Sequence record: OL770074.2
Reading direction: 5' to 3' (one strand)
DNA: 64,000 nucleotides
Source: Escherichia phage vB_EcoM-RPN187
This document shows positions 11,594 to 60,243 of this stretch, piece after piece. Every line of letters begins with the position of its first letter. The stretch's first letter is position 1. A model generated the notes under the pieces. The model worked only from the letters and a program-made list of their open reading frames with translations, had not been told where the DNA came from and ran no database searches. A program made the position numbers and the translations under genes.

Positions 11594-12202
11594 TCAGTAA
11601 CTGACAATAGACATATTCCAGATTGTATAACTTCCATCTTGAATAATAGAATCTACACGCAGTGTAGTCCCTATAGGGAGCATAAATTCACATTCGTCAG
11701 ATATAAGTCTAGCATTAGACCGTCTTGTCGCTTCAGGGAAAGCTCCATTGAACTCACAAGATGGCGCAGCCAGAATCATGTTAAGCATATGTTCACGGAA
11801 GTTGAAAGCAAATGGTGCATCTTTGATGCAGAACATATTAAATGTTCCGTAAAAATTATACGAAGCAAAGTTACGTGCTACACCAAACACTGGACTAAAG
11901 CTCATTACTCTGTCAAATTTAATAATACTACCAATGCCTTTATCGTCGAGTGTGGCCATAGTTTTCTTAGAGATTCCACGATACATTGTCTCAGGAACTG
12001 AAGAAGACCAATTTCTACGAACAATTGCACTTAAATCTTGTTGGATGCTGTCTGGCTTGTTTTCCATACACTGCCATAGTACACTTTGTTCAATGTCGCT
12101 GAATTGCTCATCGATTTTGTACTGAAGCATATCTTGATAATCCGGGCATTGAGCACGTCGAACCATTTCTTCAATTTCACACTCGTTATACGGCATAAAC
12201 AT
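11594..12202 (-). CDS. modA: ADP-ribosyltransferase ModA-like (R-S-E class)
   Basis: 202 aa; YRG, SFS..ARNF and ECEF motifs; SD AGGAG. Confidence 0.75.
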   Translation of the reverse strand: MFMPYNECEIEEMVRRAQCPDYQDMLQYKIDEQFSDIEQSVLWQCMENKPDSIQQDLSAIVRRNWSSSVPETMYRGISKKTMATLDDKGIGSIIKFDRVMSFSPVFGVARNFASYNFYGTFNMFCIKDAPFAFNFREHMLNMILAAPSCEFNGAFPEATRRSNARLISDECEFMLPIGTTLRVDSIIQDGSYTIWNMSIVSY

Positions 12203-12259: not shown

Positions 12260-12841
12260 CTAAAAATTCAACATTTTCAAATGAATGATTTTGTATAATC
12301 GAGATAAAGGGTCATATTCTAAGTCTTCAATTTCCACAATCTCAAATCTAGAGATACCTGAGACCATGTACTCTTGTTCAGATTCAATCATATCTAGGAC
12401 GTCAACACGTGTTTCTTCCATAACATGCTTAGGGTTCTTTCCGGCAAGTACAATGTTAACCATGTTTTGGTAGTAATCAAAAATGAATGGAGCATTCCTG
12501 AGACTAAGAATAGTGTACGTCTGATATTCCCAATTCCCAGAGAATTGACGAGCTGTACTGAAATCAGTTGTGAACGATGTTACTCGTCCAGGAGACCAAT
12601 GACATCCAACAGAAAGAAGGGAAAGACGTTCTACTTCTTCTGGAGTTACACCACGGTAGAGTTCTACTGGTACTGTAGAAGTCATATGCTTACGAACAAG
12701 ATGGTCTAATTCATAGTGGAAATCCGGGTCTTCCTTAGAATCAGTGCAAGCCCAGAGAATGTTTTGTTCTTGGCGGGTGAATTTGCTATCAATCAGATTT
12801 GTTAGGTATTCACGTTCTTGAAGTTCAGATTGACATGTCAT
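12260..12841 (-). CDS. modB: ADP-ribosyltransferase ModB-like (R-S-E class)
   Basis: 193 aa; YRG, STARQF, EQEYMV motifs; paralog of modA. Confidence 0.75.
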   Translation of the reverse strand: MTCQSELQEREYLTNLIDSKFTRQEQNILWACTDSKEDPDFHYELDHLVRKHMTSTVPVELYRGVTPEEVERLSLLSVGCHWSPGRVTSFTTDFSTARQFSGNWEYQTYTILSLRNAPFIFDYYQNMVNIVLAGKNPKHVMEETRVDVLDMIESEQEYMVSGISRFEIVEIEDLEYDPLSRLYKIIHLKMLNF

Positions 12842-59027: not shown

Positions 59028-59230
59028 TTAGGTTCACCTTCTTTAACGAAATCTGGGTAAGGGTAAAATCCTGAGTAAAACCCTTCACCTTTATGATTGC
59101 TACAACCTTTGTTCGAACAGTAACACCAATAATCAAAATCACAAGCCATTTCGTCATTGCATAAAGCAAAAACTACAGGCCATTCGCATTTTTCGCATTT
59201 AGCACCTGTAAGAATTTTTGTTTGACTCAT
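59024..59230 (-). CDS. hypothetical Cys-rich small protein
   Basis: ATG (MSQTKIL) with SD AAGGTGA; CEKCEW...CYCSNKGC. Confidence 0.45.
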   Translation of the reverse strand: MSQTKILTGAKCEKCEWPVVFALCNDEMACDFDYWCYCSNKGCSNHKGEGFYSGFYPYPDFVKEGEPK

Positions 59231-59439
59231 AGCCATGTCACCTTTAAGCAATATTCTTCTACATGTTGTTTACGACCTTTCTTATCAATAAAGGTATATT
59301 CAACGAATGTTCCGATGTAGTCTTTATCTACATCATGTGGACTATTAATTGGACATTTGGTACGACAAATGCGTTCCCATTGACGAATAATTACTGCCTT
59401 ATTCTTTGGGTCATACGGATGTGGATAATGTATATTCAT
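59227..59439 (-). CDS. hypothetical small protein
   Basis: ATG (MNIHYPH) with SD GGGAA; ATGA overlaps both neighbours. Confidence 0.45.
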   Translation of the reverse strand: MNIHYPHPYDPKNKAVIIRQWERICRTKCPINSPHDVDKDYIGTFVEYTFIDKKGRKQHVEEYCLKVTWL

Positions 59440-59903
59440 AATAATGGTTCCCAATCAACAATCACAATTTCTAGTTTAGTGGAATACGTATCTAAAATCT
59501 CTTCGATGACATCCCAGTTTCCACCACCGATACCTGCACCAATTCTTGGCATGTAAATTACAGGCTTTGTTATCTTATTCTTTCCGAATTCATTTAATTC
59601 TATTATACAATTCATTAAAGCAAAGTACTCAAAATTAGGTCCAGGCTCAAACTGCGTATAAAGATTAAAGCAATAAGCTTTATGTGTCTTAAAATATTTT
59701 TCATAAACTGAATAAGTCCCGAGTTTAGACTCGTCTCCGAATTCAGTTTGAAGTTTATCGGCTTCTAGAATTTTTGGATAAGCCTTTGCTAATTGTCCTG
59801 CCACACCAGCGCCCATTGTATGAAAACAATTACACCCATGAGCAATATTATTACCTTTAGAAAACAGGGCGACAATATCGCCCTTGATATAGTTTTTAAT
59901 CAC
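59436..59903 (-). CDS. macro-domain protein (ADP-ribose binding/hydrolase fold); start uncertain, probably GTG
   Basis: NIAHGCNCFHTMGAGVAGQLA and RIGAGIGGG macro-domain motifs; no ATG upstream of domain; GTG with SD GAGGAC. Confidence 0.65.
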   Translation of the reverse strand: MIKNYIKGDIVALFSKGNNIAHGCNCFHTMGAGVAGQLAKAYPKILEADKLQTEFGDESKLGTYSVYEKYFKTHKAYCFNLYTQFEPGPNFEYFALMNCIIELNEFGKNKITKPVIYMPRIGAGIGGGNWDVIEEILDTYSTKLEIVIVDWEPLL

Positions 59904-60243
59904 TTGCTGCAAGTCCTCTAGTATAAGAGTCAACTAGACGGTCCACCATAGAATTGCATGCTGCCTTATCTTTAGGTTCCGCCACCGAGCATTCTAATAT
60001 TTGCCATTTTTTATAGTATCTTTTAATTAAGGTGGACGCCTTGAACCTACTAGTCGCCCCATCTTTTTCTCCGTCTTTATACGCATATAACAATTTTTGT
60101 GAAAAATCTACTTTACACTCTTGACTTTTACCACAATAATCAGACGCTGTTCTGTTTGTATACTCCGTTACATCAGTATATGTAGTATTAGCAAGAGCGT
60201 TAAACGAAACCAAGCCAACTATTAAAGCCAACATTTTGGTCAT
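59896..60243 (-). CDS. hypothetical secreted protein
   Basis: 115 aa; signal peptide MTKMLALIVGLVSFNALA. Confidence 0.55.
   Translation of the reverse strand: MTKMLALIVGLVSFNALANTTYTDVTEYTNRTASDYCGKSQECKVDFSQKLLYAYKDGEKDGATSRFKASTLIKRYYKKWQILECSVAEPKDKAACNSMVDRLVDSYTRGLAASD

Follow-up and report, generated by a model that had tools for sequence, protein, structure and literature searches.

The Mosigvirus gene assigned as the orthologue of T4 tk.4 (adfM) encodes a macrodomain with a probable SCO6735-type active site

Introduction

Macrodomain proteins that counter DarT toxins have been described from phages T4 and PhiKZ and from Streptomyces coelicolor, and they provide the setting for a gene found on the minus strand, at positions 59436-59903, of a 64,000-nucleotide stretch of Escherichia phage vB_EcoM-RPN187 (OL770074.2), hereafter the window. 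Growth of a T4 transposon library on DarTG2-expressing E. coli yielded tk.4 as the single significant hit, and a clean deletion of tk.4 made the phage DarTG2-sensitive; the gene was renamed adfM (anti-DarT factor, macrodomain), its product was proposed to take ADP-ribose off DNA, and the structural similarity of T4 AdfM to DarG of Mycobacterium tuberculosis was remarked upon by the authors (bioRxiv 10.1101/2025.11.20.689424, 20 November 2025). A further factor of this kind had been predicted by the observation that T4 without adfA and adfN is still DarTG2-resistant (PMC11825919).

The antitoxin of DarTG2, DarG, contains a macrodomain (PDB 5M31, 5M3I, 7OMU) that is inactive when Lys80 is replaced by alanine (PMC5179494). 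The stand-alone Streptomyces macrodomain SCO6735 does without this lysine in removing thymidine-linked ADP-ribose from DNA and in protecting against DarT; its Q85A and Q85E mutants are dead and N27S is nearly so, and in the chemistry proposed for it a water molecule is held by the Val25 backbone while Gln85, itself held by Asn27, positions the distal ribose (PMC9411070). Such lysine-free, glutamine-dependent chemistry has so far been described for SCO6735 only. PhiKZ gp104, also named AdfM, strips ADP-ribose from DarT2-modified DNA in vitro, and removal is weakened in its N23A mutant (PMC13309987, Cell Reports 2026).

We consider it likely that the window gene, as the Mosigvirus orthologue of T4 tk.4/adfM, encodes a protein that removes DarT2-derived ADP-ribose from phage single-stranded DNA by a glutamine-type chemistry. 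The initial annotation of the stretch, made from its letters alone, had proposed that a macro domain encoded here could reverse host-derived ADP-ribosylation of DNA, and had pointed to plaque assays on hosts carrying DarTG. The requirement for tk.4 in the DarTG2 resistance of T4 agrees with that proposal, and the T4 orthologue has in effect already been put through such a plaque assay, with a positive outcome, since its clean deletion sensitised the phage. The annotation is confirmed as correct, and the function, having been assigned to the T4 orthologue, was already known.

Results

Orthology to T4 tk.4

The window protein aligns with T4 Tk.4 (NP_049723) over its full length and without a single gap, 130 of the 155 residues being identical (84%), and its gene occupies the same slot between vs and tk.3 in a gene order (regB, vs.1, vs, tk.4, tk.3, tk.2, tk.1, tk, rI.1, rI) that is the same as in T4. 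Given the gapless identity and the identical order from vs to tk, we assign the window gene as the positional orthologue of T4 tk.4 (adfM). The two proteins have the same length and start position and share every residue that is invariant in the family; the 25 substitutions between them include a lysine in T4 where the window protein has Gly126, and none falls at an invariant position. The start codon differs, being ATG in T4 and GTG in the window, and so does the genus: T4 is a Tequatrovirus, whereas the window, whose tk.4 region shares 98-99% identity with Escherichia phages F2, NHEP11, mogra and others, belongs to a Mosigvirus-type T-even phage (Straboviridae, Tevenvirinae). The anti-DarTG2 phenotype is known from T4 alone.

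Fold and class of the macrodomain

The window protein matches the Pfam Macro family (PF01661) over profile positions 2-117 of 118, with 26 bits against a gathering cut-off of 22 (E=9.8e-6), and it matches PHROG 335 ("phosphatase") with E=2.7e-66. Its sole matches among NCBIfam and PADLOC models are to DarG, with 29.8 bits for the DarG equivalog NF048014, below the cut-off of 250, and 31 bits for the PADLOC DarG model, in the macrodomain part only. A structure predicted from a 108-sequence alignment, with a predicted local distance difference test score (pLDDT) of 96 and a predicted template modelling score of 0.91, replaced a single-sequence AlphaFold model that was unusable (pLDDT 36). The protein is predicted to adopt the three-layer alpha/beta/alpha macrodomain fold, and with the Pfam match above threshold and the fold model in agreement, the macro domain that the initial annotation placed here is borne out.

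In comparison with known structures, the model scored highest against Bacteroides BT1257 (18.2, at 30% identity), followed by yeast Poa1p (17.6), the M. tuberculosis DarG macrodomain (17.3), TARG1 (16.8) and Thermosipho DarTG (16.7), the next match, to viral and MacroD-type macrodomains, standing at 13.7. Foldseek returned the same set of structural neighbours. The closest neighbours in both structure and sequence are ALC1/TARG1-like proteins (TARG1, DarG, Poa1p, SCO6735), not MacroD, PARG or macroH2A, and because of the structure-comparison ranking and the Foldseek set we place Tk.4 in the ALC1/TARG1-like macrodomain class.

From DarG itself Tk.4 differs in having a glutamine at the position of Lys80, in lacking the tryptophan of the HWR motif, and in consisting of a macrodomain only, without the C-terminal DarT-binding domain or an adjacent darT. 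A tblastn search with Pseudomonas aeruginosa DarT2 found nothing at E<1 in the window.

A glutamine at the position of the DarG lysine

Homologue alignments were built with 34 and then with 108 sequences. In the larger one, G23, N25, G33, A35, D49, G62, N80, Y82, Q84, P119, I121, G122 and G124 are invariant (108/108), and H22, C24, C26, M30, G31, T83, G127, G128 and W130 are kept in at least 90% of the sequences, H22 being invariant in the alignment of 34. Profile-profile comparison (hhalign) placed Q84, encoded by CAG at 59652-59654, opposite the catalytic Lys80 in the F-P-T-K motif of a DarG set comprising the M. tuberculosis, T. aquaticus and T. africanus proteins and PhiKZ gp104 (E=2.6e-15), and opposite Lys84 of human TARG1 (E=6.3e-13; sequence verified against PDB 2LGR), the TARG1 Asp125 standing opposite a glycine. 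The best of the three comparisons was that with SCO6735 and BT1257 (E=8.6e-18), in which Q84 falls opposite Gln85, and H22, G23, N25, G122 and G124 pair with His24, Val25, Asn27, Gly126 and Gly128, respectively. The Tk.4 glycine loop aligns with the PRIGCGLAGG segment of these two proteins. SCO6735 and BT1257 (PDB 5E3B, 2AFC/2FG1) are stand-alone, ALC1-class macrodomains; they differ from Tk.4 in carrying G-Q where it has T-Q, and their overall identity to it is just ~24-33%.

An independent MAFFT alignment reads T-Q in the Tk.4 family and G-Q in SCO6735 and BT1257 at the Q84 column, as against T-K in TARG1, both DarGs and PhiKZ gp104. A pairwise phmmer alignment to BT1257, ungapped through N-x-Y-T-Q, set Q84 opposite an aspartate instead, and was overruled by the concordant profile-profile and multiple alignments. 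A PDB query with the C-terminal two-thirds of Tk.4 showed the glycine loop only, and the SCO6735 sequence was reached via BT1257. As judged from these residue correspondences, the Tk.4 family carries an active-site constellation of the SCO6735 type (Q84, N25, H22), with a chemistry probably unlike that of DarG. The initial annotation had named loss of the catalytic macrodomain residues as the finding that would tell against it. The DarG/TARG1 lysine is indeed absent, and an invariant glutamine stands in its place, as it does in the active DNA hydrolase SCO6735.

PhiKZ gp104 resembles Tk.4 in being a stand-alone phage macrodomain that counters DarTG2, and its conserved Asn23 corresponds to N25 of the window protein. 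It is, however, of true DarG type, with an F-P-T-K-D-N-W-R motif and E=9e-25 to M. tuberculosis DarG, and its BLASTP match to window Tk.4 extends over 23 residues only. Since gp104 is DarG-type and its local match to Tk.4 so short, we judge PhiKZ gp104 and T4 Tk.4, both named AdfM, not to be orthologous. The name was given independently by two groups to unrelated lineages, one of the glutamine type (T4 Tk.4) and one of a DarG-like lysine type (PhiKZ gp104), and this clash of nomenclature could mislead annotation transfer.

Distribution of the family

Relatives of Tk.4 were found by tblastn in at least 2,795 phage records from many host genera, the GenBank labels of the close ones being "macro domain protein", "phosphatase" or "Poa1p-like". 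Bacterial data comprising one genome per species contained 215 stretches that encode relatives, and the best 80 of these were used for the motif, neighbour and DarT results. N-x-Y-[TS]-Q is kept at 79 of the 80 loci. Neighbour clustering gave housekeeping genes particular to each lineage and no recurrent partner, and a tblastn search with a single query, the P. aeruginosa DarT2 of PMC13309987, found nothing at E<1 within 4 kb of the 80 loci. Because no DarT lies near and no neighbour recurs, among these best loci and with one DarT query, the Tk.4 family looks like a stand-alone clade of the SCO6735 kind rather than a recently detached DarG antitoxin. The motifs of this clade are H-G-C-N-C, N-x-Y-T-Q and P-x-I-G-A-G-I-A-G-G.

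Bacterial homologues with N-x-Y-T-Q occur in Rhodobacterales (Ruegeria, Shimia, Roseovarius), Verrucomicrobiota, Planctomycetota, Desulfobacterales and Bacteroidota, and the genes beside the bacterial homologues include those for an alpha/beta hydrolase, a pyridoxal-phosphate-dependent dehydratase-like enzyme and an EEP-family nuclease/phosphatase. In three metagenomic phage contigs (2010-5483, 2161-5474 and 516-3829; ~40% protein identity) the macrodomain gene comes directly after a cassette made up of P-loop kinase (AAA_33), T4-type RNA ligase and PDDEXK nuclease genes, and UvsY lies upstream; no NARP1 genes were seen adjoining the macrodomain gene at these three loci. The arrangement suggests that in other phages the macrodomain has a connection with modules for RNA or DNA repair.

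Start codon, neighbouring genes and allelic variation

The open reading frame of tk.4 runs from a TTG at 59933 down to the stop codon at 59436-59438, and its earliest in-frame ATG is the codon of M30 (in H-T-M-G-A-G), which lies within the macrodomain. Translation from the GTG listed in Table 1 yields the 155-residue product from a coding sequence of 468 nt. An ATG stands precisely here in T4 and in Shigella phage Sf24, and T4 has an in-frame TAG immediately before it, so that T4 Tk.4 cannot begin further upstream; the near-identical phage mogra carries the same 468-nt coding sequence, annotated "macro domain protein". On these grounds we assign the GTG as the real start of tk.4, in line with the initial annotation, which had considered a GTG start likely upon seeing no ATG upstream of the domain. 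The TTG at 59933 was ruled out because the homologous T4 start comes immediately after a stop codon. A GAGGA sequence upstream of the start is also found in T4 and Sf24. A scan of 57.5-62.5 kb for promoter-like sites gave 14, compared with 17.2 expected in shuffled sequence, and with no excess we claim no promoter.

Within tk.4 codons 7-13 (59866-59884, minus strand) there is an 8-bp GC-rich hairpin, AGGGCGAT-ATT-GTCGCCCT, followed by GTTTTCT, that has a terminator-like score; the 76 nt around it fold with z=-2.5, and the hairpin is 100% identical in T4 and Sf24 at the nucleotide level. Its role may be that of an attenuator or of an RNA-processing signal, or it may just form part of a conserved recombination flank.

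Table 1. Coordinates of tk.4, its sequence elements and motif codons, and other genes of the window discussed in the text.
Feature	Coordinates	Strand	Remarks
tk.4/adfM coding sequence (assigned)	59436..59903	minus	155 aa + stop; macrodomain protein, ALC1/TARG1-like class
GTG start codon (assigned)	59901..59903	minus	overlaps vs 3' end by 8 nt (GTGATTAA); homologous to T4 and Sf24 ATG
GAGGA, Shine-Dalgarno-like	59914..59918	minus	10 nt between it and GTG; read from sequence
Codons H22-G23-C24-N25 (H-G-C-N-C motif)	59829..59840	minus	SCO6735 His24, Val25, Asn27; DarG N22; PhiKZ AdfM N23
Codons N80-L-Y82-T83-Q84	59652..59666	minus	Q84 at position of DarG K80, TARG1 K84, SCO6735 Gln85
Codons P119-R-I-G-A-G-I-G-G-G128 (diphosphate-binding glycine loop)	59520..59549	minus	SCO6735 Gly126/Gly128; DarG G117-G121
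vs (valyl-tRNA synthetase modifier), upstream neighbour	59896..60243	minus	PHROG 1256, E=1e-34; vs stop overlaps tk.4 start
tk.3, downstream neighbour	59227..59439	minus	PHROG 2008, E=1e-41; ATG overlaps tk.4 stop (ATGA)
ModA/ModB-type ADP-ribosyltransferases	11594-12202, 12260-12841	minus	PHROG 832, E~1e-38

The genes tk.4 and tk.3 are probably translationally coupled, within a tightly packed block. A mechanical list of open reading frames begins tk.3 at a TTG (59227-59454, minus strand, 75 aa); the PHROG match starts at residue 6, and the annotated start in related genomes is the ATG at 59439 (70 aa). In mogra the tk.3 product bears the label 'putative ABC transporter ATP-binding protein', seemingly a mis-annotation that has propagated.

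Comparison of T4 with Sf24 over the vs-tk.4-tk.3 region, corresponding to window positions 59136-60203, gave 97-100% nucleotide identity across vs and into tk.4 as far as nucleotide 30, ~73-90% up to ~150 nt and 37-57% over much of the tk.4 body, before a return to 97-100% in tk.3. This drop between conserved flanks marks the body of tk.4 as an exchanged allele, a pattern often seen in genes under host-defence pressure. The Sf24-type allele has ~58% protein identity to window Tk.4 and, further into the gene, 40-50% nucleotide identity to T4, and the alleles of T4 and Sf24 both retain the invariant active-site residues.

Discussion

Orthology, fold, class and residue equivalences come from the present analysis, and the T4 phenotype and the SCO6735 chemistry from the literature; from the two together we infer the same activity and a glutamine-type mechanism in the window protein. 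In the mechanism we propose, tk.4 lies in a vs-tk block of overlapping genes that is taken to be early, and its stand-alone macrodomain would bind the ADP-ribose that host DarT2, the toxin of DarTG2, puts on thymidines of phage single-stranded DNA. Hydrolysis of the ribose-thymine bond would then let replication go on, with Q84 serving for the catalytic lysine and acting with N25 and H22 in a manner matching the SCO6735 active site.

Several points weigh against this proposal. The evidence on T4 tk.4 consists of genetics reported in a preprint (bioRxiv 10.1101/2025.11.20.689424). In alignments of the Tk.4 family, the DNA-contacting lysines of SCO6735 are absent, Lys34 corresponding to Ala32 and the mobile loop with Lys89 to a five-residue gap, and so is the tryptophan with which DarG is thought to stack on the thymine base; with these lysines, the loop and the tryptophan all missing, Tk.4 would have to hold DNA by other means. 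The N-terminal half of Tk.4 is resembled by Poa1p about as well as by DarG. In addition, dead SCO6735 still inhibits DarT by binding, which makes protection without hydrolysis possible (PMC9411070).

The last two points lead directly to alternative functions. Tk.4 might be mainly an ADP-ribose-1''-phosphate (ADPR-1''P) phosphatase like Poa1p or the phage protein Adpp, converting ADPR-1''P from RES-type NAD+-degrading defences or RNA repair into ADP-ribose. 'Phosphatase' is its historical annotation, an H-x-C-N-C motif is common to Poa1p and Tk.4, an N-terminal fragment of Poa1p finds T-even Tk.4 directly by tblastn (RB69 tk.4 included), and the metagenomic relatives follow a kinase and RNA-ligase cassette. 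A Poa1p-like macrodomain of Vibrio phage Gary does dephosphorylate ADPR-1''P and, together with NARP1, defeats aRES, a result of January 2026 that makes this alternative weightier (bioRxiv 10.64898/2026.01.28.702374); the Gary Adpp (KNV71_gp137) is not among the top tblastn matches of Poa1p. We nevertheless hold phosphatase activity to be an unlikely main function. Of the residues probed in the Poa1p structure, His23 is conserved (H22) and Ser30 conservatively replaced (T29), but Phe152 is lost, standing opposite Gly126, and a manual alignment of the Poa1p segment places a serine opposite the invariant glutamine of the Tk.4 family. The NARP1 genes (Adps, Namat) do not flank tk.4, whose neighbours are vs and tk.3, and a small-molecule phosphatase would not account for a T4 phenotype that is DarTG2-specific. 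As an additional activity of Tk.4, ADPR-1''P dephosphorylation is possible.

Protection from DarT2 without catalysis, whether by binding of the toxin or by shielding of ADP-ribosylated DNA, finds precedent in the catalytically dead SCO6735 Q85A, which interacts with DarT and thereby inhibits it in vitro (PMC9411070), and in full-length DarG K80A, which also inhibits DarT (PMC5179494). The isolated DarG macrodomain with K80A, in contrast, does not (PMC5179494), and Tk.4 has no extra domain of the type by which DarG binds DarT. Moreover, the full set of ADP-ribose-binding and catalytic residues is unchanged throughout 108 phage and 79 bacterial homologues, which argues for selection on catalysis and makes a purely non-catalytic role, in our view, distinctly improbable. 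The presence of ModA and ModB in the same genome, and the ability of macrodomain superfamily members to remove protein-linked ADP-ribose, had led the initial annotation to consider reversal of phage-derived modification, that is, of ADP-ribosylation by Alt/ModA/ModB or of ModB RNAylation of host proteins. Its estimate of about 47 kb between the loci holds, the measured distance being 46.6 kb, but its linking of them does not: they lie in separate blocks, share no operon, and nothing connects them. The Tk.4 family is found in its thousands of phage records, and in bacteria with unrelated neighbours, and the phenotype in the T4 screen is specific to DarTG2. Alt, ModA and ModB target arginine, a linkage reversed by the ARH/DraG family rather than by macrodomains, and to our knowledge arginine-linked ADP-ribose is not a macrodomain substrate. 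That Tk.4 should act mainly on these modifications seems to us extremely improbable.

Removal of DarT2-derived ADP-ribose from DNA by glutamine-type chemistry thus remains the reading we prefer, and what the present analysis adds to the T4 work is small: a predicted active site with glutamine for lysine, a kinship nearer to SCO6735 and BT1257 than to DarG, and the apparent non-orthology of the two AdfMs. The presence of glutamine at the DarG lysine position implies that a 'catalytic Lys' mutant, or any other experiment presuming DarG-like chemistry, would be wrongly designed, and the 'phosphatase' label carried by hundreds of genomes should become 'AdfM/Tk.4 macrodomain, anti-DarTG2'.

A broader possibility, for which we regard the balance as even, is that T-even AdfM is not a captured 'orphan DarG antitoxin' and instead belongs to a clade of its own, a widespread one of stand-alone macrodomains that hydrolyse ADP-ribosyl-thymidine by lysine-free, glutamine-dependent chemistry. 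If so, phages would meet DarT2 with two unrelated catalytic solutions under one name, that of T4 Tk.4 with its glutamine and that of PhiKZ gp104 with its lysine, and a glutamine-type enzyme might act on further ADP-ribose conjugates as well, ADPR-1''P or modified RNA for instance, and so afford broader protection. For the T-even phages, tk.4 is one layer in a stack of counter-measures, AdfA, AdfN and AdfM, directed at toxin-antitoxin defences that ADP-ribosylate DNA.
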